Shown here piece by piece: positions 245 to 46,677 of a DNA stretch of 64,000 nt; within the stretch, counting starts at the first letter, position 1; each line of letters opens with the position of its first letter. This DNA comes from a virus (Duplodnaviria > Caudoviricetes). Below the pieces are notes generated by a model. That model worked only from the letters and a program-made list of their open reading frames with translations, was not told the origin of the DNA and searched no databases. The position numbers and the translations under genes are program-made. The DNA lies in IMG/VR virus record IMGVR_UViG_3300010163_000001, positions 128,001 through 192,000 of that record. The stretch is one strand, 5' to 3'.

Positions 245-772
245 ATGGATAATTCATATGCTATTGAAAGTTTTATTGAATATTGTGATGGTATGATGAT
301 TGCAACAGAAGGAGTAAAAGAAGGATTTGAAAAAGTAAAAGCTTGGTTGATAAAACAGTTCACAAAACTAATAAATGCAATTCATGGGTGGGTACGCAAA
401 AAGCAGCTCAAACATAATATAAAAGATACTATTAACAATAAAATGGGTGGATCAGCGTTAGCACATGCTTATGATGCATTAGATGGGTTATTGGTAAGAT
501 GCAAAGCTGGTTTAGCGAAATCAAAAGCTCTTAATAATCAGAATCCAGAATTAGCAGAACAATTAAAACAAGAAGTAGAATTCTGCTCCAAAATATATAA
601 AGAACAACTTAAAATATTAAATGGCAATATTGAGGCTGGTCAAGATATAGTTAGTGGTAGTGGTTATAAATACAATGATAAAGAAATGAGCAAATTAAAA
701 AGAAATCAAAAACGAATACAAAAGAGAGATGATAAGTTAAAAAAATCAATGGAATCTTACATGATATATTAA
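245..772 (+). CDS. putative internal head/virion protein with N-terminal propeptide
   Basis: AAGGAGG RBS; N-terminus ESFxxYCDxxxIAxEG shared with 45640..46677; A-x-E resembles a phiKZ-type prohead protease site. Confidence 0.6.
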   Translation: MDNSYAIESFIEYCDGMMIATEGVKEGFEKVKAWLIKQFTKLINAIHGWVRKKQLKHNIKDTINNKMGGSALAHAYDALDGLLVRCKAGLAKSKALNNQNPELAEQLKQEVEFCSKIYKEQLKILNGNIEAGQDIVSGSGYKYNDKEMSKLKRNQKRIQKRDDKLKKSMESYMIY

Positions 773-3380: not shown

Positions 3381-3960
3381 TTAAAAATCCTTCCTCAAAA
3401 GCTCCCGGGAAATATATATCACATTCTTCTTTTAATTTCTTTATCTCCGGATTATTCTCTATGTCTGAAAGGACAACATTCTCAATTGTTGGCAACAATT
3501 TTGCAACTTTAGTTGTTACTATCTTTACTATATCTTTATATGATTTAGTGTTCACGACAATATCCAAACTCCAGCTTGCACATTTTATATATGAAGAAAG
3601 AAGTCTGTTTTCATCTTTTATAACACCACTTTTGCTCATACCAACAAAATTTCTCGAATTAATTGATCTGAGTTCATCTATAATTATTTCTTTTATATTT
3701 TTACCAACCATTTCATAGTTTATTATCTTATTCTCCCCATTATTTTCGTCCTCTTTCCTCTCTTCTTCACACATGTCAATGTAAATTTTCCATTTTATCT
3801 TTTTAGCATTAGGGAAATTCTTTTTCGTTTCTGTTCCAGGATTTGTAAGGATAAATTCTCCCTCTGTTTGGTCATCTTCCAATTTCGATATAATTTTATT
3901 TACAAGGTCATCCCTATCTTCCCCGGCTAATTTTGAATATAAAATATCATTTTTATTCAT
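3319..3960 (-). CDS. hypothetical protein between gyrB and gyrA
   Basis: 213-aa ORF with AAGGGG RBS, co-oriented. Confidence 0.7.
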   Translation of the reverse strand: MNKNDILYSKLAGEDRDDLVNKIISKLEDDQTEGEFILTNPGTETKKNFPNAKKIKWKIYIDMCEEERKEDENNGENKIINYEMVGKNIKEIIIDELRSINSRNFVGMSKSGVIKDENRLLSSYIKCASWSLDIVVNTKSYKDIVKIVTTKVAKLLPTIENVVLSDIENNPEIKKLKEECDIYFPGAFEEGFLNGLYVYMFKGGENSEEEKEG

Positions 3961-4117: not shown

Positions 4118-6529
4118 CTAATTATCAAGATCCATATAACTAATTTCTGCATTATCTAGCAAGTCTCTCCTAAGTTGTCTCACTTCTGCTGTCTTTCCAT
4201 GTAACAAATGGAATGTTTTTAACGTCTCTTCCATATCATTAATGTTAAATCTGATTAGCTTTCTGATTTTTGGATTCAAGGTCGTAGCAAATATTACTTC
4301 TGGATCCATTTCTCCAATACCTTTGTAACGCTGGTCAATCTTAATTGTAAAGGTTCTTTCCATCATATATAGGAAATCCCCTATTGTATATCGATCATAA
4401 TCATCATTATTATCATTTCTATTTTTTACAAATACAAAGACAGAAAAATTCTTTTCTAATATATTCATAAATTTCTTTGCTGCTCTCCAGAAAATATCAT
4501 CTACAATTAAAGAGATCGATTGTTTCTCATGTGATCCATCAATCAACTTCTCTTTTATATCATAGGTTAATTCTGGAAACTCTTTTTCAATTGCTTCCTT
4601 AAATTCAAACTCATCTTTCGTGTTTTCCTTCGCAAAACATACGAATTCTAATACAGATGTTACTTCACAAGACGTCCTAGCTTTCAATCGTGTTAACTCA
4701 TCTGTATATTCCACATTTGTCTTTAGCCATTTCTTAGCATCTTTCTTCTTTAATTCAATTGCATCATTAGAATGCCACTCATGCAATACTATGTTTGTAT
4801 TGTCAGAAATGATCTTGTTAAGTACATCATAATACTCCTCTCTACTATATAAATATAGAGATCCATTATACCATTTCTTTACAGTTTTTGGATTGAGAAT
4901 TAATAATGGTGGAAGTGCTTTGTACACTTTCCCTTGTATAATGAGTTCTGGCATACATAACACAATGAATAATAATATCAAAGATGAAATATTATTCCCG
5001 TCTGTATCTGCATCTGACTCAATAATAATCTTGTCATACTTCAACTTTGTAATGTCAAAATTTGGTCCAATCCCACAGCCCAATACAACTGTCAGATTAT
5101 GAAATACTTTACATTCCTGAAATACTTTCAATGGGGACATTCCAGAAACATTGTTAACTACTCCCATGACTCCAAATACTGCTTGATATCTACTATTTCT
5201 TGCAGTATCAATTGCAACTCCTGCAGATTCTCCTTCAGCAATAATAATCTCACTGTATCCATTATAATTCCGATCTGCCAATGGATACCACATTGGTATT
5301 TCAGTATCGTCTAAGAAAGTCGTCTGCTTCTTCATAACAGCACCTTTTATTTTATGTGCTTCCATACGAATTTTTGCAATTGTTCTCAGGTATGATATAA
5401 TCCTTCGAAGTAATGCATTATTCGCATTAAAGTATTTATATAATGCTTCTGTCAATCCTTTCTTTCCATTCTTTAATACGTCCGCATTTGATACTCTAGT
5501 TTTATGCTGTCCTTCATAAGCAGGATCAATATGCTTACAATTTATACAATAAATCAATCCTTTCTTACAGTCTTCAAATGTAACTTCATACTTCGCATTT
5601 GGATCTAATTTCTTTGCTTCTCTACAGAAGAAATCACAAATTGCTCTTAATGCAACCGTTTCATGATTTCCTCCCTCTGTCGTATTTACATAATTACAAT
5701 AACTATTCACGATCGTGTCATCAATTGTCTTATCATAAGAAAATGCCAATTCCAAATCAAAGTCATCTGTAATAGATACAACTTCCACTGGATTAAATTC
5801 CAAACTGGAACTGAGGTATCGCACATTCTCAGCTAATCCTTGCCTCTTATATTTTATTACCCGAGACGGTTTCTTTTTTGCATAATCCTTCGGATCAATG
5901 TCTTTATCATATTCATAAAGATTAACCTTAATATCATTTCTCATGATATAAGACATTCTTCGAAAGTAATCTTCTATTTGATAACACTCTAATTTCACAT
6001 CTCCTTTCAAATATTCTGAAGAGGGAATAAATTTTACTGCTAATCCATATTTCGGACTTTTTAGTTTTACCGGTTTATGATCCTTAATCTCTCCATCAAC
6101 AACTTCTACCATTTTAGATTCATTTCCTCGATAAGATATCATGGAGAAATACTTAGCACATGCCGCAGATACTACCAAACCGACGCCATTCCTACCACAT
6201 TGCTCTTTCATTTGTTGACCTTCACGAATGAATTTTGTAGATGTATGCTTTTTTGTACATACATCTAGTAACTTATCAAATGGGATTCCTCTACTAGAAT
6301 CAATTGTCATAAAACTTTGCTCTACTTCATCAAATATTGCATCAAATTCTGTAGATAATGCTTCTGGATTTACAGCTTCATCAAATTCATTATTCACTAA
6401 TTCTTTGATGATGTGTTTTGCTCCGTCCGTACCTAATTTTGAAATATACATACCGAGAGCAGTTCGAATTTGTTCGAACTCATCATCAATTTCCATATAA
6501 ACATCATCTTTAATGTTTTTTAACTCCAT
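4118..6529 (-). CDS. gyrB: type IIA topoisomerase subunit B (GyrB/ParE-like)
   Basis: GHKL motifs ELVNNEFDE, DSSRGIP, GRNGVG; TOPRIM AEGESA and DADTDG; QRYKGIGEMDP. Confidence 0.93.
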   Translation of the reverse strand: MELKNIKDDVYMEIDDEFEQIRTALGMYISKLGTDGAKHIIKELVNNEFDEAVNPEALSTEFDAIFDEVEQSFMTIDSSRGIPFDKLLDVCTKKHTSTKFIREGQQMKEQCGRNGVGLVVSAACAKYFSMISYRGNESKMVEVVDGEIKDHKPVKLKSPKYGLAVKFIPSSEYLKGDVKLECYQIEDYFRRMSYIMRNDIKVNLYEYDKDIDPKDYAKKKPSRVIKYKRQGLAENVRYLSSSLEFNPVEVVSITDDFDLELAFSYDKTIDDTIVNSYCNYVNTTEGGNHETVALRAICDFFCREAKKLDPNAKYEVTFEDCKKGLIYCINCKHIDPAYEGQHKTRVSNADVLKNGKKGLTEALYKYFNANNALLRRIISYLRTIAKIRMEAHKIKGAVMKKQTTFLDDTEIPMWYPLADRNYNGYSEIIIAEGESAGVAIDTARNSRYQAVFGVMGVVNNVSGMSPLKVFQECKVFHNLTVVLGCGIGPNFDITKLKYDKIIIESDADTDGNNISSLILLFIVLCMPELIIQGKVYKALPPLLILNPKTVKKWYNGSLYLYSREEYYDVLNKIISDNTNIVLHEWHSNDAIELKKKDAKKWLKTNVEYTDELTRLKARTSCEVTSVLEFVCFAKENTKDEFEFKEAIEKEFPELTYDIKEKLIDGSHEKQSISLIVDDIFWRAAKKFMNILEKNFSVFVFVKNRNDNNDDYDRYTIGDFLYMMERTFTIKIDQRYKGIGEMDPEVIFATTLNPKIRKLIRFNINDMEETLKTFHLLHGKTAEVRQLRRDLLDNAEISYMDLDN

Positions 6530-17240: not shown

Positions 17241-20200
17241 TTATTTCTTTGCAATTGCTTCATGTATTTTTGTCAATGACATCTTTGAATAATCCTTATC
17301 AGATTTACTTGAAGATGTTTTATATGTCCTTGGTAACTTAGTATTCCCGTTTCCATAAGAAACGACTGTATTGTTATTTGTAACACTATTATATGACATT
17401 TCTTTGTTATTTTTTTCTTCTCTTTCTACAAACGTCTTTAATACATCTATAATTGTATCCATCTTACTCTCAATATCTCTTGTATTAAGAGCAACTGTTA
17501 ATTTCTCTTTTACTTGTGAATTGGTATTCATTGTTCCAGAACCATATCCAATATCTTCTTCTGTTTCATATTTTTTAGTATCGTATTTATAACTCGTTGG
17601 ATCTATTGTAGAGTTATGACTATCATTTCTTCTTAATTCATAATGTAAATGACTTCCAGTTGACTTACCAGAAGAGCCAACTTTTCCTATTACGCTATCT
17701 TTATACACATGTGTTCCTGGACCATACCCTACTGGTTCATCCATATGCGCAAATAAATGCTGTGTCCCGTCATTGTCTTTTACAACTGCATAGTTACCAT
17801 AACCAGCAACATCAGTACCTGTTGAAATAACATCTCCTTCTATTGGGGATTTAATATCAGTACCATAAGGTGCTCCAATATCCAGACCCCTATGAAACTC
17901 GCTTCCTAATTCTGAATTTCTATGTCCATACCCAGAAGTTACGATTCCTCCAAGAGTATTTGTAAAGTATCCCTCTGGAGTGTCCATGTTCTTATTTGAT
18001 GGTCCGGGACCAAATCCTATAAGATTCTGATTATATGCTCCTGCGACTTCATTTAATCCTCCAAGTAGGGCATCCAGTCCGCTACCCGCTTTTACTACAC
18101 CAGAGCTTCCTGTATTACCACTATTTGTATTGGTATAATTAGTACCTGAATTAGCTACTGATAAATTGTTAATTGCTGCAGATCCACCTTCTGGAGATCT
18201 CCATACTACAGTATATGCTGATCTACTACTATGAGTAATTCCCGGATTATTTACAGATGAATTAGATCCACAATTGTAAACCATATTTGTATTTCCATCT
18301 CGTCCTGCAAATATTTCCGTATGTCCACTAATTACTAAAATATCTCCTGGAACTAGATTTGTCCATCCAGTCCATGGCATATAAGTAAATCCTGAATTTG
18401 TGAGTAAACTATTATTAGATGATAATAATCCGCTAGAACTTGTTAAGAAATCCTGTCCTGTATAATAAGATACACAAGCACTTACAAATCCAGAACAGTC
18501 AGTTCTAACAGATTTTTGTATACCACCTACATTTATTGTGATATAATTGCTTTGTGAATATCCAGGCTGTTGTGCAGCGATTGCTTGTTTTACAGCTTGT
18601 ACAATATTTAACCATGGTGCTCCATAACCAATTGCTTTAGATTTTCCTAATATATTATATCTCAAATAAGACGACTTACCCGGTCCATAGGAAACATTTG
18701 CAGAGGTCGTATTATTTGATGCAACCATAGTATTATTCCCACCGCCATATCTAGCAAGCCAACTATTTGAATATCCAATACGTTCATTTTCTTCTCTAGT
18801 GCTTTGGTCAGCCGGTTGTTCATATACATGTAACATATCATTAGATGCTTTTGATACATCATTTGTTGTAGTTAAGGTATTCAAAAGGGATGGATATCCT
18901 TGAAGTTCATCTTTAAAATATTGAACCTGAGCACTAATATCCCCGACAGAAAGTCCCTGTCCGTGAGCTTTGTCAACTAAACCTTTCTTTCTTGACCAAT
19001 ATGTCCATTGTGCTAATCCATAACCTTTCTTATCATGAATAAAGGAGTCTGGATTCGCATCTGCATTCTTCGTATACTCTTTTGATTTTTCATATCCACT
19101 ACTAAAGTCTCCTTGTACTCTAACTGCATGATTTCCAGATTCTTTCTGCCAGTTACCCATAACACCTGCAGCACCAGCAGGAGTAAATCCTACTTTTATA
19201 AGTTCATTCCAAATATATCCTGTTTCATCATTTGCATCTGTTAATGCATAACTACCACCAGATGCAGTTGTATCTCCACTATTGTCAGGAGACAAATCCA
19301 TTAATTGTATAAGTGCATTTTGTTTTGCTTTTTCATAGTCATCACCTGAAGCCTGTGCAGAAATTGCAAATCCTATTGCTTGTAACTTTTGAGAAACTGT
19401 TGCATTACTCGTATCTACATTCATTGTATCTGATGAATTTGTAAGCATGGTATATCCCGTATTTTGTGGAGAGTTAACCATATAGCCACCAACTCCATCA
19501 GTTGCATAATTTACTCCAGAAACTTTTGGAGTTACCGTATATCTTGAATCTGTTTTTGTATTCACTCCGGATGGGACACCGTACTTCTTCCCTATGGAAA
19601 GAGCACCATTTCTCATCATTGCAACTATACCTTGTCCGGCACCATTGGATTTTAATCCATTTGTCATTGCTACACTAGCTACTGCAGAAGCAGCCTTCTT
19701 AAAGGCTTTATTTCCAGTTCCGATTCCATATCCTACATTTAACGTAAATGGTCCCTTTGAATTTCCACTAGGAGTGGGTTTTGCAAATGGATTGTTTTTA
19801 AAGAACGGACTATTTGCAGTTTTCTTTTTATTTGTGTTTATTTGCTGTTGAAATACCTTAGCTGCATTTTTCTTAACTTCAGGTGAGATATTACCAACAA
19901 CAGAATCTTTTTCGTAATTTATTCCAGAAACTTTCGGAGCTGTATGATAAGAATATGGCATACCCATTTCATACATTTTCTTTGCATATGCAATCTTTTG
20001 TGTTACAATTGTATTGTAATTTTCATAATCAGGAGTTCCAGGTGGCGCTCCTGCATATTGAAGTTCATCTGTAAATTGTGTTGTCAATGCCATAATTCCT
20101 TGCTCTGTGAGCTGGAACTTCTTTATTGCTTCTTCAACAGTTTTTGGATCATTGCTTGTCAATCCTGCTTTTTCAGCAGCTTCTGCAGCTCCTTTATTTG

Positions 20201-23200
20201 TTGCATTGGCTTTTGGGTCAACCATATAGCCACCCACAGAATCTTTTTCATAATTTATTCCAGAAACCTTCGGATCACTTATATTTGCAGTTGCTCCTGC
20301 AGCGACACCTATACCAGAATTATCAGCACCAGATTCATCAAATGGATTAACTTCTTTAATAGAACGATATTCTTTTCCTCCCATTAAAGCGTCCATCATA
20401 TGTTCAAAAACCGCTGTAAAGTTATTGAATATAGCACCTATTTTTCCAGTAAGTCCTTCTGCCTCAGAAACGGATTGGTAATCGGATGTTCCTCCCACTT
20501 TGTTGCTAAAATCTACTGGACCACTGATTCCTTCTCCATTTGGCCCTGTAACTACATATGCACTCTTAATTGCATTCTTCTGTCCTACTTTATCTTTCAA
20601 TCTCTTAACATTAAATACAGATGGTTGTTCTAATGTTGTAAACGGGTCATTTACTGCAAGATAATCTCCTTGCGCTGCTCTAGCTACTAATGTTCCATAA
20701 GAATCTGGATTGCTATCATCAAGAGCAGATGCATTTTCTGGATGATTTTTACCATCTGCAGTATATCTCCAATCTGTATTGGTGTTAAAAGCACCAATAT
20801 TGTTATATTCTCCTTTATCATAGAATCCATTAAAAATAGATCCATTGTAACGATAACCTGTTAGTACAACAGGTTTATTACTTCTAAGCGCATTAATAAC
20901 TGAATCCATAGATTCTAGTTTCTTAACTTGTAATCTTTTTCCATCAACTTGAGTTTCTCTTAATGCATTGAAACCACCGTCTTGATAGATCGTGTCTTGG
21001 TTCAATCCAGTACCGGGTGAAGACCATCCAGTATATCGTCCATCCAACCAATTAGAATTAATATAATCCGGAGTGATGATATTATTTCCAAATGCACTAG
21101 ACACCATTGCAAGCGATGCTAAATCTCCTCCACGGAATCTAACTGTAGATCCTCTCCATGGTATATTACTCCATCTTGGATCATCTGTCTGGAAAAATGG
21201 GAACCCATTCTTATATTCGAAAGAATCACCATATGTTCCAAAACCACCAAACATTTCTGATAGTTCTTGTTTCCCCTTAATTCCTTCTAGTTCAGATGTT
21301 GTAATTACATGATTGTCTTTATAATCACCAGAATCGACAAATAAATAGTATACTTCTCTAAAAAGAGGAATTCTGCCATCAGATAACAGATCTTTCTTAT
21401 AAGTAACCATATTTTTGATATCTTTTACTTTTAATCCATTATAAAAGTCGATTCTATTAAATCCATACTCACCATTTGTCTGAGTGAGACCAGATGCAAT
21501 CTTACGTTGCATTCTTACAGCAGTATTTAATGTTGCCCCTTTCAAATTCGAAGTAATATCAGTATTCAAATAATAACTCGAATTTCCATATATTTCTGCA
21601 ACAGTAGCATTTGATTTTGCTTTCTTATAATTAGCAAATGCATTATTTGCCACAGTTGCTCCCAATTTTGCTAAATCTATTGCAGATTTAGTAGCAATAA
21701 CACCAGGAGTCGTTTTCTTAGAAGGCTTTATCGCCCTCCCATTAGAATCTGTTACTTTTATATCTATTCCACTAGCTTCTTTTTCTGCTTGCGCATTTCC
21801 ATTAAGATATTCATAAAAACTATCGGGTAATCTCCCCTGTGTTCCTTCTTTGATTAAATTATTTTCGTCCTTTAAATTCTCTAGATCGTATCTATTATCC
21901 ATCTTTCTATATGTAATCGAATTATCACCTTCAATTACATAATAATAGTCATCTCCGTATTTAAACCATGGTAAATCTTCATCCCCAGGTCCAAAACCTA
22001 AAGATTTGCTTGGTTTCCATTTTATTTTAGCAGAACCAGTGCCAAAACCAATGGAACCTTTCTTTTTGTATTGATCTGTATACCACTCTGCCAATGATAA
22101 GTTTCCACCGTTAGCTTTATACGAATCATAAGCCCGATGTTCTTTTTCTGTAATTGCATAAGTATCTTGTAAATTGTAAATGTTATTCCATTCTGTCATA
22201 TCTCCGCCAGATATTTTTGCTCCTACCCATGAGAAACCTTTTTGAACCTGACCAAATATTCCAGCATCTTTATTTGATTTATTATTCCAATCGTTAACAG
22301 TTAAATTCGTACCATTGATTGCATTATATTTTGCAACCTGTGCTTCAAATTCATCTGTTGCAGTATCTAATTTTTCTTTATCAAAGAATGTACTGTATAA
22401 CCACCTAGCAACAATCTGTTTTATATCCCATTGTGGATTGATCATACTGATAATTTCAAGTACAAGGTCAACACAAGATGCTCCTGGTAAACCTAATAAA
22501 ACTTGAAGTACCGATGATATTGTTTTCATTTCCCATGTAACATCATGTTTTGCAATACCAAATAATCTAGCTGCAGATGTCCAACCATCTACACCATCAT
22601 AAACTGCTCCTATAATTAGTGGAATAATTGCTGCTGATGCACCAGTTCTTATAGATATTTCTGCTAATTTTTGTGAAATTTCATTAGCAATTGCAGAAAT
22701 AGTACTAACTGGACATCTTCTCACCATACTTATGATTTTTTCTCCAAATCGTTTGATTCCATCGCTCCAATCTCTTGATGAAAACCATGCTGCAAATCTA
22801 TCTCCATATTTTGCTGCAAATTTAACAAATTGATTTATTACTTTATTAATCAAAGTAATTGGATGTACACTCGTAGCATCTATAATCCCAGCATTCACAG
22901 CAGCATCTTTAGCTGTCATTGTTGTATCATAAATGTCATACATATTAGAAGCTTTATCACTTATATTAACAATATCACTTGCAGCCCCATATCCAACTGC
23001 CTTTCTTCTGTAACTCCATCCATGTGTCATTCCGGATGTCAAATTACTAAGTTTCTCTGTTCTAGTTCCTCTCATCGGATCATTAATTCTTACATTTCCA
23101 TTGTTATCAATGCCAGAAGCAACTACAATATGACCTGCTTTTGTATAAGGTCCATTCATAGAAGACTTTCCAGACACAATAACCGGTTCTCCACTTTGGA

Positions 23201-26200
23201 GGGATTTTTTAATAGAACTCTTATTTACTTCAGTCGGAGATAACCCCATATCAGAAGCACCTTTTGTAAATAATCCGGCAGTAGAACCACCATCTTTAAT
23301 ATATCCATTATTCTGTGCATAAGATGCTACAGATACTGGATCTGTATTTGATTTTAATTGAGATGCTACCATGGATAATGCAGTAGGACCACAACCTCCT
23401 GTAGCCATTGTACTTGTAGTACCATCTGGGAATTTTCCTATTGGTATATTTCCCCATCTAGGGTCATTCTGCATAACAGTACCATATCCTAATACTTTCT
23501 GTCTATTGCTAATTTTTATTGGTCCAGGACCATTATAAGTTTCTTCTGTAGATTCTTTTGGATTATTAGATTGAATTGTCGGAGCAAATTTCATATTTAC
23601 CCAATCTTCAAACTTTGCATCCTTATTATTAGCTTTATATGCATCCCATTCTCTTTGTTCTGCATCGGTCAATGTGTCTTGCTCTTGAGTTTTCCATTTA
23701 TCTTTATATGCTTGGGTATTTCCCCCACCACTCCATAACCAATCCCATCCTTGATGAATTTTTCCAAATATGTTGCGGCTATTATTTGTTAAGTTACTAT
23801 ATTCCTCAGTAGTTAAATTCGTACCATGTTTTGCGTTATGAATCGCAACTTTTTTGTCGAATTCCTCAATTGCATCATCTAATTGCTTCTTTCCACCAAG
23901 ATTCGAATAGATTGCTCTTGCAAGCATTCTCTTAAAATCCAATTTCGGGAAAAATGCTTTAATGACCTCTAATACTATGTCAATATATGCCATTGGTCCA
24001 ATACCAAGTATAACTTCCATAATAGAAGATGTAAGTCGCATTCCCCATGTAACATCAGAAGCGGCAACTCCAAACAAATCTGCAGCAGATATTGCTCCAT
24101 TAAGTGCATCAAATGCACCAAGAACTAACGCTAAAACACCAGTTCCATCGGCAGCAGTTCTCGCAGTTGCTTCCGTCATTTTTGTACTAATTAATTCACC
24201 AATTTTTCTAATAAGTTTAACGTCACTCTCTAAAAATTTCTTTGATAAGCTTTCAATAAGTTCTTTAATAGTTTTAGTCCAATTAGCCTTTGTTATAACA
24301 CCCGTAATCTTTTTATCAAAGGATGTATAAACTTTATTTAATCCATCAAGTAATTTATTTAATAATTTCTTTATGATTCCTTTATTTGCTGCAATATCAT
24401 CTACATTCTTTGCAGCAGTATCTACTGCAAGTTTTGCAGAATTAACAGCAGCTTTATTTGCTGCAACATCTGCCTCTAAAAATACTTCAGCACTTCTTGC
24501 GGCATTTGTTGATATATTTCGAGTAGTATCTAAGATTGCTTCTGAATTCTTTAATGTTTGCTCTGCAGCACTTAATCCTTCTTGTGCAGTTAATAATGCA
24601 GATTGTGCATCTTGCACCCTTTGTGCTAACTTAGTTGCTTTTGAGCCCATAACTTTACTAGATATCTTACTAGCAACTTTTCCGGTTCCTTTTGCTGCAC
24701 CTTTAGCAACTTTTGATGCCATTCCCATTCCTGGAATCATTCCGATTGCACCAATTCCACCCATAGCAGCACCACCGGCAATAACTCCTCCAGTTTTTAA
24801 TGCTCCTTTTGCTAATTTATTTGCAAATGGTCTTGAAATTCCGCGTATATATTTCGTACCAGCTCTTAATCCAGAATATAATGTACCACTACTAAATCCA
24901 GATACTTTCTTTGTAGCATGGAATACTCCATTTTCATCAATATATCCATCAAATCCTTCTTCACCAGTAACTTGACCAGTTTCATCATCAACTTGATATC
25001 CTTCTTCGTATTCTACAGAACCATCTTCATTGTATTTCTTTATTTGATGACGTGCATTTTTTGTTTTTTCTTGAGCTTCTTCCTTTGTTTCAAATTTTTG
25101 TGTATCACCTTTATCAAATGGATCTTTAAATCCAAATACTCCTGCAACTTTACTAATGAGACATTTTCCAATCGAGGTCGCTGCTGCATATAATAAATCC
25201 CAAGATGTCTTTACAATAGTATCCATGTTGTCGATAATTAGTCCTGTGACATCTGCCACAAATTTAGGTGCTTTTTCAAATACAAGATCCTTCACATTGA
25301 TAAGGAAATCTTTTACCGGAGGTATAATATTCGTTTCAATGAAAGGTAATGCTTTCTCTTGCATCCAAGGTTTAAATTTGTCATTATAAAATTCTTTGAT
25401 TTGTTCCCCAAATACTGCGTAGATACTAAAACTTCCGAGTGCTAATTTCCAGAATGTTTTACTCGTAAATAACTTACCAGCCACACCAAATACATTTTTA
25501 AAGAAACCACCAACAGATCCAAATACTGTTTTCTTATCTTCGTCAGTCACTCCTTTAATATCCGCTTTGCTTTTATCTTTTTTATCTTTCTCTTCATCTT
25601 GGTAGGATTTCCCACCACTTCTAGCGCGTTCACTTTCTTTCTGTTCTTTTTCGTCTCGTTTCTTCTTTTTATCACTATCTCTTCGTGCATCAATAATATC
25701 ATCTGCACGGTTAACAGTTTCACTATTTGTAGCATCTCGTAAATCAGATATAGATGCTCCTGTTTCTATTGCTGTATCAGCAGTATTCATAGCAGCATTT
25801 GCTTCTGTTGCTTCTTCAATATTCTCTAATGCATTTATAACTGCTTCTTCTGTAGAATTATCTTCATCTTTCTTCTTAAAATGTTCTGTAATTGGTGTTA
25901 TTGCTTCTTTTATCCAATCATAGAATTTCTTTGTTCTTTCTCTATCTTGCTGCTGATCAGGAGATTCTTGAATCTTAAGACCATCGGAAACAGCCATTTC
26001 TTCGAAACTTTTCTCTTCATCCTTCTTTTTATCTTTATCAGGATTAAATCTCTCATAAAAATCTTCTTTATTGTAAAGAAGATCATTTAAATCTTTATTA
26101 TTCTTTATCCATGATATATCTAATCCAGCATCTTGTAATTCATCTTTTGCTTTCGCAAGTTCTACATCATCTAAAGAACCATTTACGTATCCAAATTTCT

Positions 26201-29200
26201 TAGCATAATCATGTCTAACGCGATCAATTCTTGACTGTACTTTCCTATCTTTCTTAAACTTTTCATGTTTTTTTACTGCTTCTTTAAGTTCTCTTCTTGC
26301 AGACATCCATTTAAAATGATTCTTACCTTCTTCACTAAGTCCATCTTCATATTTTTGTAATTCCGCATTATAAGAATTCCGTAAACTTCCTTTGAAATCT
26401 TTAACCATAGTCAAACCACGATTAATTCCTCCAAAGAATCCATTAAATTCATTTTGATCATATGCAGCACTCTGTGCTTTTACATTATCAATTGCACCAC
26501 GTATTAATTCAAATGGTCTTGACGCAACTGCTCGTTTTTCTTTCTTCAGTGCTTTGTGTCTCATCTTAGCAGTTCCCAATCTAGCTAAATTTAAACCAGC
26601 AGTAACCGGGAATAGAGATAACTTCATTGCATCAAATGGCAACCTTACAGCACGTTTTCCAACAAACTTAAGTGCGCTTGTTAATGGAGAAAATGCTTTT
26701 CCTATCGTATTTTGGAATATCTTAGTTACACTAATTCCAACTTTTTCAAAAACATCATGAATTGTATCTGATACATCTTTTTTAATACCATGAATATTAT
26801 CAGCAATTACTCCAGCAACCTCTTTGAACGGAGTAGTAAGTTTCTTTTTAAGCCATAATGCAAAATCTTCTGTATGTCCCTGTAATTTATTTTTCACTGG
26901 TTCAAATACATTAAGAACCATCATATTTTTCATTTTAGTAAGAAGACCATTATTTTTTCTTCCTATTACATTTCCATGTTCATCAACTTCTTCGTCACCG
27001 AATAATAATTTCTTAAATGCTTCTGTCTGAGATGCAATCCCTATACCAAGTCCAGCAAGTCCCATTCCAACAGGTCCACCTAATGATACAGCAGAACCTA
27101 AGAAACCTAAATGACTAAGTGTTGCACCTGCAACTGCACCTACTCCAAGTCCTTTTAAGCCACCTTTTACAAAGTGACCAGACTTTTCCATAAATTTTGC
27201 GAATTTTCCATTTTCTTTGCTGAATAATCCACCAGCACGTTTTCCATTTTCGTCTTTTTCTCCAAATAATATCTCTTGGAATTTATCGTTACTTTTTAAT
27301 AGCGAGAATCCGATTCCTAATAATGCTCCACCAATAGGACCACCAGGTAATAACGTATTTAAAAGAAAACTTCCTTGTCCAATACCTAACATACCTTTTG
27401 CAGCACCTAATACAGCTCCTCCTGCAATCATTGGAGCATTGTCTTTAAAGAATTTCTGTGTCTTCTGAGAAATGAGACCTCCAGTTTTATTTCCGTCTTC
27501 ATCTTCCTTTCCAAACACAAATTCATTAAACTTTTTAGATCTTGATAGCATGGATAATCCTATACCAGCAATTGCTCCACTGATAGGACCACCGGGCAAT
27601 AGTGCAGCTCCTAAAATACCACTACCAGAAAACATAACCGAGGTTCCAACTGCAGCACCAATTGTTGCACCAGTTAATCCGGTTGGTAAAAATTCTTTAA
27701 ATTTTTCTTGTATACTTTTATTGCTTCTCTCTTGTTGCTTTTGTATATCTTCTTCTGAGCCAACAATTCTATCTACAATATCTCCTGTTGAGTCAGCTAA
27801 TTCATTTGCAATATTTGTTAATTGACTTGATATCTTTGAAGAACTTTCCCTTATCTTATCTTCTTCCTCTTTGATAAAAGTTTCAAAGTCTCCACCATAT
27901 AATTGACCTTGTTGCATGGGATCCATTTTATCCCATGATTTCTTATATTTATCACGTAATTCTTTTTCCTTTTTCTTCTTAGCTTTTTCTTCTTCCTCTT
28001 TTATGAAATTCTCTATATCATCTCCATATAACTGTCCCTGTTGCATAGGGTTCATCTTTTCCCATGCATCTTTATATCTCTCTTGTAATTTTATATTCGC
28101 TTCATTCGTTTCTTCTTTTTTATTCTCATTTGCTTCCTTTATAATTGCAGAATCTGTATTATTAGCTTCTACTTCTTCCGTTGCATTATTTAATCTATCT
28201 TGTCGTTTTTTATCTCGCTTAGCTTTAAAATCAAACCATTTAAAGTATTTATTGTAAGTATCATTCTCTTCATAATCATCTCCGAACCAATATTTCATTG
28301 CGTTCTTGTAAATTCTATCATATCCATTTGCAATCTTATCAAAAACACTGTCTTCTTTTTCATTATATGTGTTACCATTGGAATCGGTGTAACCTTTTCC
28401 AGTAAATACATATTTGATATAATTCATCTGGTCTTTCATCCAGACTGTCACTCCACCAAATACACCAGTTTCTTCATCAAATAACTTTTCTCTTATTTTC
28501 TTTACGCGTTCATTATTTAATACATCTTTGAAGAATGATCGAACAATTCCATCTTTTCCAAAAATCCCACTAACCATAGGACTTAAGAAATTATGATGTA
28601 ATGATAACACCATAGCTTTTATGGAATTTTTATCCTCTTCTGTCCCATTTATTTTAGCTGATTTATTATTCTCTAAATTCTTCATAACGCGTTCTGTACG
28701 ATTCGCGTTAGATTCTATTTTAGAGCGATCCATTTTTAATGTATCTTTTAAGGTTTCTTTATTTGCTTTTGATACTTCTTTATTGATATTCTTTTCCGCT
28801 GAAGTATTACCAGTATTAATGATCGCTTGAGAAGTCGCTGGTGGGGGAGTAGAACCTCCACTCATATCACTAATTACGGAATTTACTTCATTCCAGAATT
28901 CTTCGTCACTAGATCTATAAAATCCATTTCCTCGGTCATATAAAATATTAGCAAGACGATCCAATGAATCAGAAAAATTTGCAAATAATCCAGTTTTTCC
29001 ACCGTTTTTGCTTTTTCCAGAATTCTTTAATCTATCTTTAATTTTATCAATTATACCTTTTTTATTCTTTTCCTTTTCAGCTTCTGCTCTTTCTTCTTCT
29101 GTTAATTGATCTAATCTCTTACCGGTAGATGTAAAACCTACGTCTGTAAAGATATTTATTTTCCTCAGAGTTTCCTCATCAATTACTTTTTCAACATCTG

Positions 29201-30875
29201 TTTCGTATTTTCCAAGTTTTTGATTGAAGAGGTTTCTTGATGCCGAACTAAGTGTCTGAGCTGCCTTATTCATACTACTCATGGTTTCATCATAGGATGA
29301 TGTTAAAGACATAACGACATCACGCAAATCATTTCCACCAAGTTTTGCATCATAAAGGGTATCGAAAACTCCTTTTAAAAAGTCTTGTCTCGTATCTTTT
29401 GATTTTCCTGTAAGTTGATTTACTACTCTTTCATTGATGGACTTCTTTACATTATCTAAAGTCTCATCATCAATGTCTATTTTACTAAGTGCCTTTTGCA
29501 TATCTGTAGCAAAAGAGTTCATTCCATATTCTAACGTAGTTGTATATTCTTCTTTATATGCATCTTTAAGCTGACTTTCTGTATTAAATCTCCCTGTATT
29601 CATGTCGTAATAACGAGCTTCATTCTTTGTAAGGGCAGATTCAATTTTCGCTAAATAATTAGGAATTACCTCAACCAAGGTTTGTTGAGCAATTCCATTC
29701 CAACTCATTGCATCTTTTTTAAATTCTCCTAATTCTAATTTAGTGACTGCTTTCTTTCTCTTTTTACCAAATATACTACCGATCATAGATTTAAAAAGGT
29801 CATCACTTTCTGACATGTCTCCCAAACGGTATACTAGATTATTCATTGTCTGAGTGAACATTTTATCTGATCTTCCTAGAGAATTTCGTAAATTCTTTGG
29901 GATTAATTTCGGTAAAATGCCTCCTAATGCCATTTCTAATGGAGTCTCTCCACCAATTGCGCTTGACATACCAAGCATTGTTTTACCCATTTCTAGCATA
30001 GACCAAACCATACTAGACTTTACATTTTTCTTAAGCATCTCTTTATAAGAGTATAAATTAAATCCACCAGAAAAATCAAATTCATCCCATTCTGGTTCTT
30101 CTTCTTTTTCAATTTTCTTATAGCCTTCCATGAAATCTTTAATACCTGAAATGGTTTCTCCCATAGCATTAAGCATTTCAGATGAAGTTCTATAAAATTC
30201 AGATGCTTGTTGATTTACAATTGAAACATTTTCATTTTGAAAGTCTATTAACGATACAATATTAGAATTAATTGCATCTAATCTATTATTTATTCCAGCT
30301 AATTGTGCATTTGTTTGATTAATTCCTATTAGTGCAACACTTGTCAGTTGTTTCGAAGTTGCACTTGCTGCTTTTAATTGTGTATTCGAAATTGTCTGAG
30401 TCATATTCTGCATACCAACAATGGTTGCAGCATTTCCCTCAGAAATAGCTTTTCCAAGCATAGCCGTATTCTTTTTTGATTCTCCTAATGCAACTGAATC
30501 TGGATCATTATAGTCTACATCATAGTCATCTACCATATCTGAAAAATCATCAGATGTATCGTATGATTGATTCGTTAATTTATCTAAACTGAAATTTCCG
30601 CTTTTTATGTCATCAAATGCAGATGAAATGGTATCAGCAACTTCTTTACCGACAAGCGTATGACCTAGACTTTTCGCTTGTTGCTTAATTTGTGACTTTG
30701 ACTCTGTTATAAAATATCGTGAATCTCTAAGAATTTCGGCAGTGGATGTTGTGGTATCATAAATTCCTGGAATTGTACCCTTTAATGTGATGCTACCTAA
30801 TTTTTTCATTGTTGGGGCAACGGAACGAAAGGCACTAGTCCATTTATCTAAGTTACCAGTCTTCTTGTCTTTCAT
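17241..30875 (-). CDS. giant tape-measure/tail-associated lysin (~4545 aa) with two C39-like domains, tail lysozyme, NlpC/P60 and M23 peptidase
   Basis: Gly/Ala-rich helical repeats; QNDPRW...GCGPT...GHIV...NDP; GVMGNWQKESG...GLAQWT; DCSGFV...GHTE; HRGLD...HLH. Confidence 0.88.
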   Translation of the reverse strand: MKDKKTGNLDKWTSAFRSVAPTMKKLGSITLKGTIPGIYDTTTSTAEILRDSRYFITESKSQIKQQAKSLGHTLVGKEVADTISSAFDDIKSGNFSLDKLTNQSYDTSDDFSDMVDDYDVDYNDPDSVALGESKKNTAMLGKAISEGNAATIVGMQNMTQTISNTQLKAASATSKQLTSVALIGINQTNAQLAGINNRLDAINSNIVSLIDFQNENVSIVNQQASEFYRTSSEMLNAMGETISGIKDFMEGYKKIEKEEEPEWDEFDFSGGFNLYSYKEMLKKNVKSSMVWSMLEMGKTMLGMSSAIGGETPLEMALGGILPKLIPKNLRNSLGRSDKMFTQTMNNLVYRLGDMSESDDLFKSMIGSIFGKKRKKAVTKLELGEFKKDAMSWNGIAQQTLVEVIPNYLAKIESALTKNEARYYDMNTGRFNTESQLKDAYKEEYTTTLEYGMNSFATDMQKALSKIDIDDETLDNVKKSINERVVNQLTGKSKDTRQDFLKGVFDTLYDAKLGGNDLRDVVMSLTSSYDETMSSMNKAAQTLSSASRNLFNQKLGKYETDVEKVIDEETLRKINIFTDVGFTSTGKRLDQLTEEERAEAEKEKNKKGIIDKIKDRLKNSGKSKNGGKTGLFANFSDSLDRLANILYDRGNGFYRSSDEEFWNEVNSVISDMSGGSTPPPATSQAIINTGNTSAEKNINKEVSKANKETLKDTLKMDRSKIESNANRTERVMKNLENNKSAKINGTEEDKNSIKAMVLSLHHNFLSPMVSGIFGKDGIVRSFFKDVLNNERVKKIREKLFDEETGVFGGVTVWMKDQMNYIKYVFTGKGYTDSNGNTYNEKEDSVFDKIANGYDRIYKNAMKYWFGDDYEENDTYNKYFKWFDFKAKRDKKRQDRLNNATEEVEANNTDSAIIKEANENKKEETNEANIKLQERYKDAWEKMNPMQQGQLYGDDIENFIKEEEEKAKKKKEKELRDKYKKSWDKMDPMQQGQLYGGDFETFIKEEEDKIRESSSKISSQLTNIANELADSTGDIVDRIVGSEEDIQKQQERSNKSIQEKFKEFLPTGLTGATIGAAVGTSVMFSGSGILGAALLPGGPISGAIAGIGLSMLSRSKKFNEFVFGKEDEDGNKTGGLISQKTQKFFKDNAPMIAGGAVLGAAKGMLGIGQGSFLLNTLLPGGPIGGALLGIGFSLLKSNDKFQEILFGEKDENGKRAGGLFSKENGKFAKFMEKSGHFVKGGLKGLGVGAVAGATLSHLGFLGSAVSLGGPVGMGLAGLGIGIASQTEAFKKLLFGDEEVDEHGNVIGRKNNGLLTKMKNMMVLNVFEPVKNKLQGHTEDFALWLKKKLTTPFKEVAGVIADNIHGIKKDVSDTIHDVFEKVGISVTKIFQNTIGKAFSPLTSALKFVGKRAVRLPFDAMKLSLFPVTAGLNLARLGTAKMRHKALKKEKRAVASRPFELIRGAIDNVKAQSAAYDQNEFNGFFGGINRGLTMVKDFKGSLRNSYNAELQKYEDGLSEEGKNHFKWMSARRELKEAVKKHEKFKKDRKVQSRIDRVRHDYAKKFGYVNGSLDDVELAKAKDELQDAGLDISWIKNNKDLNDLLYNKEDFYERFNPDKDKKKDEEKSFEEMAVSDGLKIQESPDQQQDRERTKKFYDWIKEAITPITEHFKKKDEDNSTEEAVINALENIEEATEANAAMNTADTAIETGASISDLRDATNSETVNRADDIIDARRDSDKKKKRDEKEQKESERARSGGKSYQDEEKDKKDKSKADIKGVTDEDKKTVFGSVGGFFKNVFGVAGKLFTSKTFWKLALGSFSIYAVFGEQIKEFYNDKFKPWMQEKALPFIETNIIPPVKDFLINVKDLVFEKAPKFVADVTGLIIDNMDTIVKTSWDLLYAAATSIGKCLISKVAGVFGFKDPFDKGDTQKFETKEEAQEKTKNARHQIKKYNEDGSVEYEEGYQVDDETGQVTGEEGFDGYIDENGVFHATKKVSGFSSGTLYSGLRAGTKYIRGISRPFANKLAKGALKTGGVIAGGAAMGGIGAIGMIPGMGMASKVAKGAAKGTGKVASKISSKVMGSKATKLAQRVQDAQSALLTAQEGLSAAEQTLKNSEAILDTTRNISTNAARSAEVFLEADVAANKAAVNSAKLAVDTAAKNVDDIAANKGIIKKLLNKLLDGLNKVYTSFDKKITGVITKANWTKTIKELIESLSKKFLESDVKLIRKIGELISTKMTEATARTAADGTGVLALVLGAFDALNGAISAADLFGVAASDVTWGMRLTSSIMEVILGIGPMAYIDIVLEVIKAFFPKLDFKRMLARAIYSNLGGKKQLDDAIEEFDKKVAIHNAKHGTNLTTEEYSNLTNNSRNIFGKIHQGWDWLWSGGGNTQAYKDKWKTQEQDTLTDAEQREWDAYKANNKDAKFEDWVNMKFAPTIQSNNPKESTEETYNGPGPIKISNRQKVLGYGTVMQNDPRWGNIPIGKFPDGTTSTMATGGCGPTALSMVASQLKSNTDPVSVASYAQNNGYIKDGGSTAGLFTKGASDMGLSPTEVNKSSIKKSLQSGEPVIVSGKSSMNGPYTKAGHIVVASGIDNNGNVRINDPMRGTRTEKLSNLTSGMTHGWSYRRKAVGYGAASDIVNISDKASNMYDIYDTTMTAKDAAVNAGIIDATSVHPITLINKVINQFVKFAAKYGDRFAAWFSSRDWSDGIKRFGEKIISMVRRCPVSTISAIANEISQKLAEISIRTGASAAIIPLIIGAVYDGVDGWTSAARLFGIAKHDVTWEMKTISSVLQVLLGLPGASCVDLVLEIISMINPQWDIKQIVARWLYSTFFDKEKLDTATDEFEAQVAKYNAINGTNLTVNDWNNKSNKDAGIFGQVQKGFSWVGAKISGGDMTEWNNIYNLQDTYAITEKEHRAYDSYKANGGNLSLAEWYTDQYKKKGSIGFGTGSAKIKWKPSKSLGFGPGDEDLPWFKYGDDYYYVIEGDNSITYRKMDNRYDLENLKDENNLIKEGTQGRLPDSFYEYLNGNAQAEKEASGIDIKVTDSNGRAIKPSKKTTPGVIATKSAIDLAKLGATVANNAFANYKKAKSNATVAEIYGNSSYYLNTDITSNLKGATLNTAVRMQRKIASGLTQTNGEYGFNRIDFYNGLKVKDIKNMVTYKKDLLSDGRIPLFREVYYLFVDSGDYKDNHVITTSELEGIKGKQELSEMFGGFGTYGDSFEYKNGFPFFQTDDPRWSNIPWRGSTVRFRGGDLASLAMVSSAFGNNIITPDYINSNWLDGRYTGWSSPGTGLNQDTIYQDGGFNALRETQVDGKRLQVKKLESMDSVINALRSNKPVVLTGYRYNGSIFNGFYDKGEYNNIGAFNTNTDWRYTADGKNHPENASALDDSNPDSYGTLVARAAQGDYLAVNDPFTTLEQPSVFNVKRLKDKVGQKNAIKSAYVVTGPNGEGISGPVDFSNKVGGTSDYQSVSEAEGLTGKIGAIFNNFTAVFEHMMDALMGGKEYRSIKEVNPFDESGADNSGIGVAAGATANISDPKVSGINYEKDSVGGYMVDPKANATNKGAAEAAEKAGLTSNDPKTVEEAIKKFQLTEQGIMALTTQFTDELQYAGAPPGTPDYENYNTIVTQKIAYAKKMYEMGMPYSYHTAPKVSGINYEKDSVVGNISPEVKKNAAKVFQQQINTNKKKTANSPFFKNNPFAKPTPSGNSKGPFTLNVGYGIGTGNKAFKKAASAVASVAMTNGLKSNGAGQGIVAMMRNGALSIGKKYGVPSGVNTKTDSRYTVTPKVSGVNYATDGVGGYMVNSPQNTGYTMLTNSSDTMNVDTSNATVSQKLQAIGFAISAQASGDDYEKAKQNALIQLMDLSPDNSGDTTASGGSYALTDANDETGYIWNELIKVGFTPAGAAGVMGNWQKESGNHAVRVQGDFSSGYEKSKEYTKNADANPDSFIHDKKGYGLAQWTYWSRKKGLVDKAHGQGLSVGDISAQVQYFKDELQGYPSLLNTLTTTNDVSKASNDMLHVYEQPADQSTREENERIGYSNSWLARYGGGNNTMVASNNTTSANVSYGPGKSSYLRYNILGKSKAIGYGAPWLNIVQAVKQAIAAQQPGYSQSNYITINVGGIQKSVRTDCSGFVSACVSYYTGQDFLTSSSGLLSSNNSLLTNSGFTYMPWTGWTNLVPGDILVISGHTEIFAGRDGNTNMVYNCGSNSSVNNPGITHSSRSAYTVVWRSPEGGSAAINNLSVANSGTNYTNTNSGNTGSSGVVKAGSGLDALLGGLNEVAGAYNQNLIGFGPGPSNKNMDTPEGYFTNTLGGIVTSGYGHRNSELGSEFHRGLDIGAPYGTDIKSPIEGDVISTGTDVAGYGNYAVVKDNDGTQHLFAHMDEPVGYGPGTHVYKDSVIGKVGSSGKSTGSHLHYELRRNDSHNSTIDPTSYKYDTKKYETEEDIGYGSGTMNTNSQVKEKLTVALNTRDIESKMDTIIDVLKTFVEREEKNNKEMSYNSVTNNNTVVSYGNGNTKLPRTYKTSSSKSDKDYSKMSLTKIHEAIAKK

Positions 30876-30941
30876 TATTATTTTCACCACCTTTTTAATT
30901 ATAATATAATCGATTATAATAATTAAAAATAGCTATTATTT

Positions 30942-45639: not shown

Positions 45640-46677
45640 TTATTTCTTTTCTTCTGCATCTTTTCCAATAATAGCGGCACATACCATATTAAGGAAAGTT
45701 GTTACAGTGTTAATATATTTAGTTGCTGCTTTCAATGCTTTTTGCATTGCAGCATTTTTGTCTGCTTCTGCCGTCTTCATCATTCTATCGACATTAGGCT
45801 TCCAACCATTCGCTTGATTTGCCATTTGATCAATCTGCATAAGAATTGCTTTTACCTCTTTTTTATCATAATAACGATTATTAGAAGTAAGCTGCTTATT
45901 CTTCATGTCAATGGATTCCTGGTTAAGCTGATCTAATACTTTAGTTACATCATCTGTTATAGATGTTAATTGTTTTTCATCATTGTTATTATTTGCAGCA
46001 AGCACTATAATCTTATCAACATTACTTTTTGCAGAATTTAAGGTTCCAATGTGGCCCTTTACGTAATAAATATAACCTTTTGTGTCTAAAACTGCCTTCC
46101 CTCCATTTTTAGAAGATGCTGCGACTCTTGCAGATTCTGTATAATAAGTTGCTTTAGAAAGGATTCCTTTTAATTTTCCTTTAATTGATTTTACATGAGT
46201 AACATCAATTTCTGCTTCCTTTCCGGGAATATGAACTTGTGTGTTTGTAGGGGTATTTATTTCTTCCTTAACTTCACGAAGTTCTTCAATAACCTCTTCA
46301 ACTGCCTGAGCACTCTTTTCATCTCCAGCCTTTTCAAATTGTTTTGCAGCATTCTTCATAACTGCATCAACTTGATTTCCAACTTTCTTAAGATCACCCA
46401 ATGTTGTTTCTGGATTATTCAAAATTGACATAGACTCATGAATTACTTCTTTTTGTTTTTGTGTAATTCCAACTGTACTACCGTCCTTTTCACCAGCTTC
46501 TTCATCGGCAGATTTGCCAAATAATCTCTTTATAAATTGGACAATTTTATCTTTAATCCATTTTACTTTTTCAACAATCCAATCCCATACTCTTTTTATT
46601 GTAGATCCCAATCCTTCATTAGCAATTGTATAATTATCACAATAATAAGTAAAGGATTCTACTGTACTTTCATACAT
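45640..46677 (-). CDS. putative internal head/virion protein with propeptide
   Basis: ESFTYYCDNYTIANEG N-terminus shared with 245..772. Confidence 0.6.
   Translation of the reverse strand: MYESTVESFTYYCDNYTIANEGLGSTIKRVWDWIVEKVKWIKDKIVQFIKRLFGKSADEEAGEKDGSTVGITQKQKEVIHESMSILNNPETTLGDLKKVGNQVDAVMKNAAKQFEKAGDEKSAQAVEEVIEELREVKEEINTPTNTQVHIPGKEAEIDVTHVKSIKGKLKGILSKATYYTESARVAASSKNGGKAVLDTKGYIYYVKGHIGTLNSAKSNVDKIIVLAANNNNDEKQLTSITDDVTKVLDQLNQESIDMKNKQLTSNNRYYDKKEVKAILMQIDQMANQANGWKPNVDRMMKTAEADKNAAMQKALKAATKYINTVTTFLNMVCAAIIGKDAEEKK

Follow-up and report, generated by a model that had tools for sequence, protein, structure and literature searches.

The best-supported reading of a giant phage protein, encoded in a 64,000-nucleotide stretch of viral DNA (the window; positions 128,001 to 192,000 of IMG/VR record IMGVR_UViG_3300010163_000001), is that it would process itself: an embedded C39-like protease domain, C39-1, may cut the protein at a short motif that recurs between its modules. 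This reading rests on comparative evidence, and we give it about an even chance of being right. The C-terminal 2100 residues of the protein are a string of modules, namely X1, C39-1, X2, an unknown domain, a dead C39-like domain (C39-2), short repeats, a lysozyme, an NlpC/P60 domain, an M23 peptidase and a basic tail. A preliminary description, made from the letters of the DNA, had proposed that a giant tail protein is cut, possibly by itself, into separate wall-degrading enzymes at G-[YF]-G motifs. In support of this, the motif is conserved at module boundaries, co-occurs with an intact C39 domain and is absent from C39-less relatives; unlike the known C39 cleavage sites named there, the motif is not a double glycine. 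Every motif copy that the description listed lies within a few bases of where it had been placed. The giant open reading frame (ORF), the modules of its C-terminal part and the motif copies are given below in the order of the protein.

17241 to 30890, minus strand: the giant ORF, 4549 amino acids (aa), with a GTG start as listed
23586 to 24398, minus strand: X1, first copy of a hydrophobic domain of ~270 aa, found by self-comparison (aa 2165-2435)
23523 to 23537, minus strand: motif YNGPG, first of pair 1 (aa 2452-2456)
23478 to 23495, minus strand: motif VLGYGT, 3 residues upstream of Q2474 (aa 2466-2471)
23004 to 23480, minus strand: C39-1, an intact C39-like papain-fold domain with Q2474, C2500, H2587 and D2604 (aa 2471-2629)
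22983 to 23000, minus strand: motif AVGYGA, 4-6 residues after the last strand of C39-1 (aa 2631-2636)
22068 to 22907, minus strand: X2, second copy of the duplicated hydrophobic domain, found by self-comparison (aa 2662-2941)
21984 to 22052, minus strand: motif pair 2, IGFGTG (22035-22052) and LGFGPG (21984-22001) around a Lys-rich spacer (aa 2947-2969)
21228 to 21248, minus strand: motif GGFGTYG, 16 residues ahead of C39-2 (aa 3215-3221)
20601 to 21179, minus strand: C39-2, a degenerate C39-like domain that matches PF13529 below threshold, E 7e-4 (aa ~3238-3430)
19719 to 19736, minus strand: motif VGYGIG (aa 3719-3724)
18750 to 19220, minus strand: Phage_lysozyme2 domain, by Pfam (aa 3891-4047)
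18618 to 18692, minus strand: motif pair 3, SYGPG (18678-18692) and IGYGA (18618-18632), with a predicted local distance difference test score (pLDDT) below 50 (aa 4067-4091)
18183 to 18623, minus strand: Cys-His hydrolase of the NlpC/P60/CHAP fold, with invariant C4132 and H4190 (aa 4090-4236)
18003 to 18020, minus strand: motif IGFGPG, in the disordered linker ahead of M23 (aa 4291-4296)
17577 to 17987, minus strand: peptidase M23, Pfam 77.7 bits, with motifs HRGLD and HLHYE (aa 4302-4438)
17715 to 17732, minus strand: motif VGYGPG, inside M23
17535 to 17552, minus strand: motif IGYGSG, after M23; the wider family has h-G-x-G here, where h is hydrophobic (aa 4447-4452)
17346 to 17360, minus strand: motif SYGNG (aa 4511-4515)
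17244 to 17345, minus strand: basic, conserved C-terminal tail of ~34 aa, ending in L..IH..IA.K

The consensus of these copies is hydrophobic-[G/S]-[Y/F]-G-x-(G), and a logo built from 955 sites added a weak preference for Lys or Arg 3 residues upstream and for Asp downstream. Within aa 2441-4549, G[YF]G occurs 13 times against 1.9 expected, and none of 2000 composition-preserving shuffles reached 13, so the comparison with shuffled sequence that the preliminary description had put forward came out on the side of a true excess. For [ILVM]G[YF]G in the same region the count was 9 against 0.38 expected (0 of 2000 shuffles reached 9). G[YF]G is absent from aa 1-2440. The whole phage (243 ORFs, 78,402 aa) has 25 copies, 13 of them in the C-terminal half of the giant protein and 12 elsewhere, a distribution which argues that the motif is not a general prohead-protease site; we rejected that candidate, as the motif hardly occurs in other ORFs and the head cargo proteins carry a different leader, ending in A-x-E. 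Four of the 13 copies are intrinsic to or near known domains (GYGLAQW in the lysozyme, SGYGxR and GYGNY in M23, and GGFGTYG before C39-2), and the other nine have the common form hydrophobic-G-[YF]-G-[TAPIS]. Because the codons differ between motif copies, the repeat appears to be maintained at the level of the protein, and a DNA-level signal, such as a recombination joint, was rejected on the same ground.

We then looked at where the copies lie relative to predicted folds. An AlphaFold2 model of C39-1 (108-sequence alignment) has a core with pLDDT above 90 (residues 31-190 of the segment), and both flanking GYG motifs lie outside this core at pLDDT 52-73. A model of aa 4060-4549 has two confident folds, and the stretches with pLDDT below 50 hold SYGPG, IGYG, IGFGPG, IGYGSG and SYGNG; the IGYGA copy of pair 3 ends on the first residue of the NlpC/P60 fold. 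In these models the linker copies are predicted at pLDDT below 50-70, just outside the C39-1, NlpC/P60 and M23 folds, in agreement with the proposal that the motif marks module boundaries. The exception that the preliminary description had conceded, VGYGPG within M23, is also borne out by the models: the copy sits in a confidently folded region to which DSSP assigns zero secondary structure. Finally, self-comparison showed X1 and X2 to be 36-38% identical, with C39-1 between the two copies and a motif pair closing each copy. The pairing of motifs around a short basic spacer, noted three times in the preliminary description, is real here and in close homologues (the spacers are Lys/Arg-rich), and family-wide the spacers are barely above background basicity.

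Conservation was assessed in homologues of several degrees of divergence. Ten giant homologues, with 37-56% identity in their best local alignments, carry motifs in the same linkers while the sequence and the length of the linkers drift. In 108 diverse sequences, the copy before C39-1 lies 2-4 residues upstream of the invariant Gln and keeps its G, Y and G in 94, 99 and 105 of the 108, respectively; the copy after C39-1, 4-6 residues beyond the last strand, keeps G in 88, Y in 82 and G in 91. Over the last 490 residues (26-sequence alignment), the motif columns are 85-100% conserved at four of six sites, the SYGPG and IGYGSG sites are well kept in their Gly columns only, and SYGNG retains its Y in 96% of the sequences, its first G in 100% and its second in 96%. 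The top residue of the flanking linker columns has a frequency of 0.19-0.44. These motif positions are conserved across sequences 31-66% identical to the giant protein over that region.

The candidate protease itself appears intact. C39-1 matches PF13529, Peptidase_C39_2 of clan CA, at 53.2 bits (cutoff, 24; aa 2496-2606), and its Q...C...H...D series, already recognized in the preliminary description, is retained in the 108 sequences, with Q2474, C2500 and H2587 invariant and D2604 present in at least 90%; the Q-to-C spacing is 26 residues. Foldseek searches with the C39-1 model returned the StbD CdiA-CT C39 toxin (8ssk), PCAT1, ComA and LahT150 (E 2.5e-5 to 4e-4), together with the papain-like toxin pair 9l5u and the pseudomurein endoisopeptidase PeiR. 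StbD ranks first among the structural matches and is the best PDB sequence match as well, at 16-20% identity; StbD-CT and Cpe1 are C39 peptidase toxins that act as contact-dependent growth inhibition (CDI) and type VI secretion system (T6SS) effectors (PDB 8ssk, 8ssm, 9l5u). A Pfam scan of the giant protein found no ATP-binding cassette (ABC) domain, and C39-1 is internal, unlike the bacteriocin-processing C39 domains that are fused to ABC exporters. In C39-2, the catalytic Cys is replaced by Asp and the His has no aligned counterpart, and the domain is dead in every homologue that has it.

Next, we looked into how the motif and the C39 domain go together across the wider family. An exhaustive profile-free search with C39-1 and its flanks gave 3728 proteins at E<1e-3, of which 131 reached E<1e-30, the entries being clusters at 50% identity. 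Almost all of the 150 matches listed are 2700-6100 aa long, and the short matches are mostly contig fragments. In the 90 representatives that carry the active-site pattern, the frequency of G[YF]G rises from one per 2565 aa ahead of C39 to one per 207 aa beyond it. Each of the 174 relatives collected has one C39-like domain or more, a universality that is partly ascertainment and hence a point against reading too much into it, as the large-scale family was gathered through similarity that included C39 and the independent control sets are small. The 217 scored C39 domains all keep Cys, His and Asp or Asn, and 12 have a gap at the Gln column (the scoring profile detects active domains only). Among proteins without C39, the linker motif was not found in the tape-measure protein of P74-26 (5006 aa, with M23), SPbeta YomI, BpSp gp263 or phiR1-37 g083. 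In a set of 33 proteins retrieved by their lysin modules, without the use of C39, the C39-negative members held 24 non-intrinsic copies in 29,388 aa against 19.7 expected, that is, no enrichment, whereas the C39-positive members held 15 copies in 4,455 aa against 4.2 expected.

These figures bear on whether the motif could be a functionless accident of composition in Gly- and Tyr-rich linkers. The linkers are indeed rich in Gly, Ser and Asn, as such an origin would have it. However, the shuffles never reached the observed counts, individual positions are conserved between sequences as divergent as those described above, and the C39-less lysin proteins are not enriched, and we therefore regard this explanation as effectively refuted.

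In gp101 of Fusobacterium phage JD-Fnp4, which is a cultured but distant relative and carries two C39-like domains, GFGP stands immediately ahead of the second domain. More distant lineages have other linker codes, for example GG[RKYF]G or [YF]G[RK]G, each used consistently within one protein. In 114 of 124 proteins, the class of motif beside C39 is also the one seen most often at that protein's other boundaries (16 of 19 for the GG[RKYF]G class), an agreement that shared ancestry inflates, which lessens its weight in favor of self-processing.

The co-occurrence data also speak to the enzyme involved. The linkers might be cut by another enzyme, which could be of host origin, a second protease encoded by the phage, or the M23 or NlpC/P60 domain of the giant protein itself. 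Glycine-rich peptides are known substrates of M23 enzymes, self-cleavage at a Gly-rich site beside its own M23 is reported for the lactococcal tail protein Tal, and NlpC/P60 is likewise a papain-fold Cys enzyme. Yet motif density in the family is about equal with and without M23 or NlpC/P60, M23-bearing tape-measure proteins that lack C39 also lack the motif, and the near absence of the motif from other phage proteins, with a different A-x-E leader on the head cargo, fits poorly with a separate protease; we hold cutting by another enzyme to be improbable.

If C39-1 is the protease, its action might be as follows. It would recognize the linker motifs and cut first in cis, at the two copies flanking its own domain, and it would then cut the remaining boundaries. 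This would yield the lysozyme, NlpC/P60 and M23 enzymes in free form, together with the short spacer peptides that separate paired sites and the C-terminal tail of ~34 aa. The scissile bond would most likely follow the Gly after Tyr or Phe (P1 Gly, P2 aromatic, P4 hydrophobic), a placement chosen because [YF]-G is the part common to all variants. At P1 and P4 this parallels double-glycine leader peptides, where P1 is Gly and P4 is hydrophobic, and at P2 an aromatic or hydrophobic side chain is what enzymes of the papain fold commonly read. Processing could take place during assembly, where the reducing cytoplasm would allow a Cys protease to work, or after ejection. We infer the cleavage itself, the bond cut, the order of the cuts and their timing from these comparisons.

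The order of cuts, own flanks before other junctions, was proposed because of the StbD-CT precedent and its similar geometry. StbD-CT cuts itself in cis after G157-G158, in a linker 25 residues before the catalytic Cys183; the self-cleavage is intramolecular, depends on Cys183 and proceeds under reducing conditions, and in the crystal the scissile region lies against the catalytic His (10.64898/2026.05.07.723447). In the giant protein, G2470 lies 30 residues upstream of C2500, where the equivalent distance in StbD-CT is 25.

The same precedent can be turned toward a narrower outcome, in which C39-1 cuts only the copies that flank it, in cis, and so frees the protease as a delivered effector, while the other copies stay uncut and have another role. 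In StbD-CT, auto-processing takes place strictly within one molecule and sets a toxin free, and in the giant protein no other copies are as conserved or as tightly spaced as the flanking two, which lie 2-4 residues from the fold. This outcome leaves aside, however, that the same motif is 85-100% conserved at the NlpC/P60, M23 and C-terminal tail boundaries, far from C39-1, and that the motif class at distant sites co-varies with the class at the C39 flanks. We consider cutting confined to the flanks unlikely.

It is similarly unlikely, in our judgment, that the motif is never cut and instead serves as a docking or structural element, one that binds, for instance, a chaperone, the tail lumen or the groove of either C39-like domain (C39-1 or the dead C39-2), or that acts as a hinge arranging the modules for packing and ejection. 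In the models the motif looks like a short linear motif in disorder, the conserved, catalytically dead C39-2 could bind without cutting, and one copy is tolerated within M23. An uncleaved element would fail to account for the retention of the catalytic triad in every scored C39 domain and for motifs placed exactly at fold edges, in the style of polyprotein junctions.

Besides the caveats of sampling and ancestry given above, several observations weigh against self-processing by C39-1. First, the motif is not Gly-Gly and has an aromatic residue where canonical C39 substrates have Gly. Second, the reaction of StbD-CT is obligately intramolecular and failed in trans (10.64898/2026.05.07.723447), and most motif sites are hundreds of residues from C39-1. 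Third, VGYGPG lies within folded M23, and a cut there might harm the enzyme. Moreover, the fold can carry other activities, as PeiR is among the C39-like folds returned, and a glycosidase with a C39-like fold is reported (PMC13642728). Lastly, dead C39-2 and other subfamilies carry NGFPYFSQ-type lead-ins at the same place, and the GYG just before Q2474 may be partly the native N-terminal edge of the C39_2 fold.

By analogy with the toxins, self-processing may be part of something larger: the phages would have polyproteins whose junction code is set by lineage (h-G-[YF]-G here, GG[RKYF]G or [YF]G[RK]G elsewhere), and the released C39 domain would be an injected effector that cuts host proteins. 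We rate this combined proposal as a long shot. The Gly-Gly that StbD-CT cuts in host GyrB and ParE belongs to a conserved HAGGK motif (10.64898/2026.05.07.723447). As a separate observation, the phage has a GyrB-like, T4-type topoisomerase II subunit (4118-6529, minus strand) with HTSTKF where, by our own reading, HAGGK would align. The phage topoisomerase II would then be insensitive to a StbD-like protease, and HTSTKF may simply be normal sequence for enzymes of the T4/eukaryote type.

The remaining modules of the C-terminal part were assigned as follows. Pfam matched the giant ORF in three places, Peptidase_C39_2 (aa 2496-2606), Phage_lysozyme2 (aa 3891-4047) and Peptidase_M23 (aa 4332-4424). 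The Pfam NlpC/P60 profile did not match aa 4090-4236, where there was a sub-threshold ELLD match only; the model of aa 4060-4549 gave, over its residues 31-175, VIA Z 9-10.8 to NlpC/P60 and CHAP enzymes. The M23 model gave VIA Z 18.8 to EnpA, with a root mean square deviation of 2.5 over 129 residues. PHROG and Pfam scans found zero families in aa 1-2440, X1 and X2, aa 2970-3215, or aa 3440-3880. An Atlas feature search with X2 gave weak leads only, namely glycine-zipper proteins and proteins of the pore-forming or translocon type, with scores of 0.76-0.85. Neither X1 nor X2 has a family match. Immediately after LGFGPG, a segment W-F-[KE]-[YH]-(N)G-[KD]-[KD]-Y (21960-21984, minus strand; aa ~2970-2985) is kept in most aligned homologues; we presume a likeness of this segment to the cell-wall (choline) binding repeat unit. 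A short repeat, PKVSG[IV]NY..D.VGG, is present in three copies (aa 3540, 3652 and 3788; 19461-20273, minus strand) in the stretch that separates dead C39-2 from the lysozyme.

Upstream of one homologue, P0071 (1022 aa; L002 4375-13069), lies an open frame of 1907 codons, and the two overlap by ~230 nucleotides in different frames. A natural gene split at the motif was considered for it and rejected; the overlapping frames fit a single giant gene broken by a frameshift, whether programmed or due to a sequencing error.

The giant protein is probably delivered by the virion, as a tape-measure or ejection type of protein. Calling it a tail protein, as the preliminary description had done, is weakly supported, by a faint but collinear N-terminal similarity to phiR1-37 g083 and BpSp gp263, and the neighboring genes contain no recognizable tail module. 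Two features of the N-terminal half were mapped.

29403 to 29999, minus strand: conserved N-terminal segment, collinear with phiR1-37 g083, BpSp gp263 and Fusobacterium phage JD-Fnp gp101 (aa 298-496)
26961 to 27833, minus strand: three tandem Gly-rich hydrophobic repeats of ~85 aa each, in the N-terminal half (aa 1020-1310)

The match of aa ~300-490 to phiR1-37 g083 ("putative tape measure") and BpSp gp263 is collinear over ~70-130 aa and weak (E 3e-4 to 4e-4), and a Fusobacterium phage protein matches the same segment. The PHROG tape-measure matches to the giant protein run through its M23 and lysozyme modules only. Upstream neighbors have no family match, and those downstream are SbcD-like and helicase genes; the window shares with BpSp, phiR1-37 and JD-Fnp4 the order of a giant gene followed by a nuclease or resolvase gene. 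In JD-Fnp4, the gp101 gene adjoins the portal gene, and given this position the giant protein may be a head-packaged ejection protein. The tandem repeats at aa 1020-1310 resemble membrane-inserting segments.

An N-terminal leader, ESFIxYCDxMxIAxEG, was seen in at least 13 otherwise unrelated ORFs (245-772, plus strand; 45640-46677, minus strand; and 11 elsewhere in the genome). It looks like a modular capsid-targeting propeptide ending in A-x-E, as in phiKZ-type phages. The giant protein does not have this leader.

The window belongs to an uncultivated 255-kb phage, and the virus record is complete, at 254,592 bp with inverted terminal repeats. Its G+C content is ~31%, and its genes for a multisubunit RNA polymerase, topoisomerase II and helicases mark it as a jumbo phage of the two-RNA-polymerase kind. 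Nucleotide and protein searches found no close relative among cultured phages, and the architecture of the giant protein is absent from cultured relatives. A database copy of the protein (P0002) has 4544 aa, 5 residues fewer than the ORF, which fits an ATG start five codons downstream (30875-30890, minus strand). Elsewhere in the window, a polyphosphate kinase 1-like gene (53146-54771, minus strand; PP_kinase_C_1 at E 1e-51, PP_kinase_C and PP_kinase_N) seems an unusual metabolic gene for a phage.

If self-processing by C39-1 is correct, tailed phages would have a polyprotein strategy, in which a giant virion protein is cut at coded junctions by its own papain-fold protease. The released set of wall-degrading enzymes would attack glycan strands, stem peptides and cross-bridges, which would explain how a tethered protein of the tail lumen deploys several enzymes against a thick cell wall. 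New pairs of protease and recognition site would also follow, as would a simple rule (a C39 domain together with a Gly-aromatic-Gly code particular to the lineage) by which thousands of giant phage ORFs could be divided into functional units. In the searchable literature we found no account of a phage virion protein that combines an embedded C39 protease with coded junctions, and the family of 131 clusters is uncultivated and, as far as that literature shows, undescribed.

Several known systems resemble parts of this arrangement. The papain-like polyprotein proteases of RNA viruses are Cys proteases embedded in one translation product, with junction motifs that end in Gly and with cleavage in cis and then in trans; they differ in being unrelated in sequence, in belonging to another virus realm and in processing replication proteins, not virion-delivered lysins. 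Processed tail proteins include lambda gpH, T5 pb2 and the Tal proteins of Tuc2009 and TP901-1, for some of which C-terminal trimming or self-cleavage is described, and the proposed trimming of the ~34-aa tail would resemble the C-terminal processing of gpH and pb2. To our knowledge, an embedded dedicated protease with multiple junction sites has not been described for lysin-bearing tape-measure proteins or processed tail proteins. Thermus phage P74-26 gp95 and SPbeta YomI are likewise very long virion proteins with M23 or lysozyme near the C-terminus, but they have neither a C39 domain nor the linker motif. The C39 domains of the PCAT/AMS type (ComA, PCAT1, LahT150) share the fold of C39-1 (TM-score 0.68-0.75, target-normalized) and its Q/C/H/D arrangement; they are fused to ABC transporters, whereas C39-1 lies inside a virion protein, belongs to the C39_2 subfamily and would read an aromatic residue, not Gly, at the putative P2.

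The polyvalent proteins of phages and conjugative elements are also multidomain and delivered, and an embedded peptidase has been suggested to process them (Iyer et al. 2017, PMC5512222). Their peptidases are mainly zincin-like metallopeptidases and their cargo is mostly anti-defense or nucleic-acid enzymes, in contrast to the wall-degrading modules here; the terms "tape measure" and "linker" are both absent from the text of PMC5512222. C39-type toxin domains have been described (PMC3482391). In StbD-CT, the Gly-Gly site differs from G-[Y/F]-G, there is a single site with a single cargo, delivery is by CDI or T6SS and not by a phage, and the targets are GyrB and ParE. What StbD-CT and the giant protein have in common is that the C39 domain is part of a large protein that is delivered, and that the flexible linker just N-terminal of the domain holds a Gly motif, which in StbD-CT is cut in cis by the domain's own Cys.

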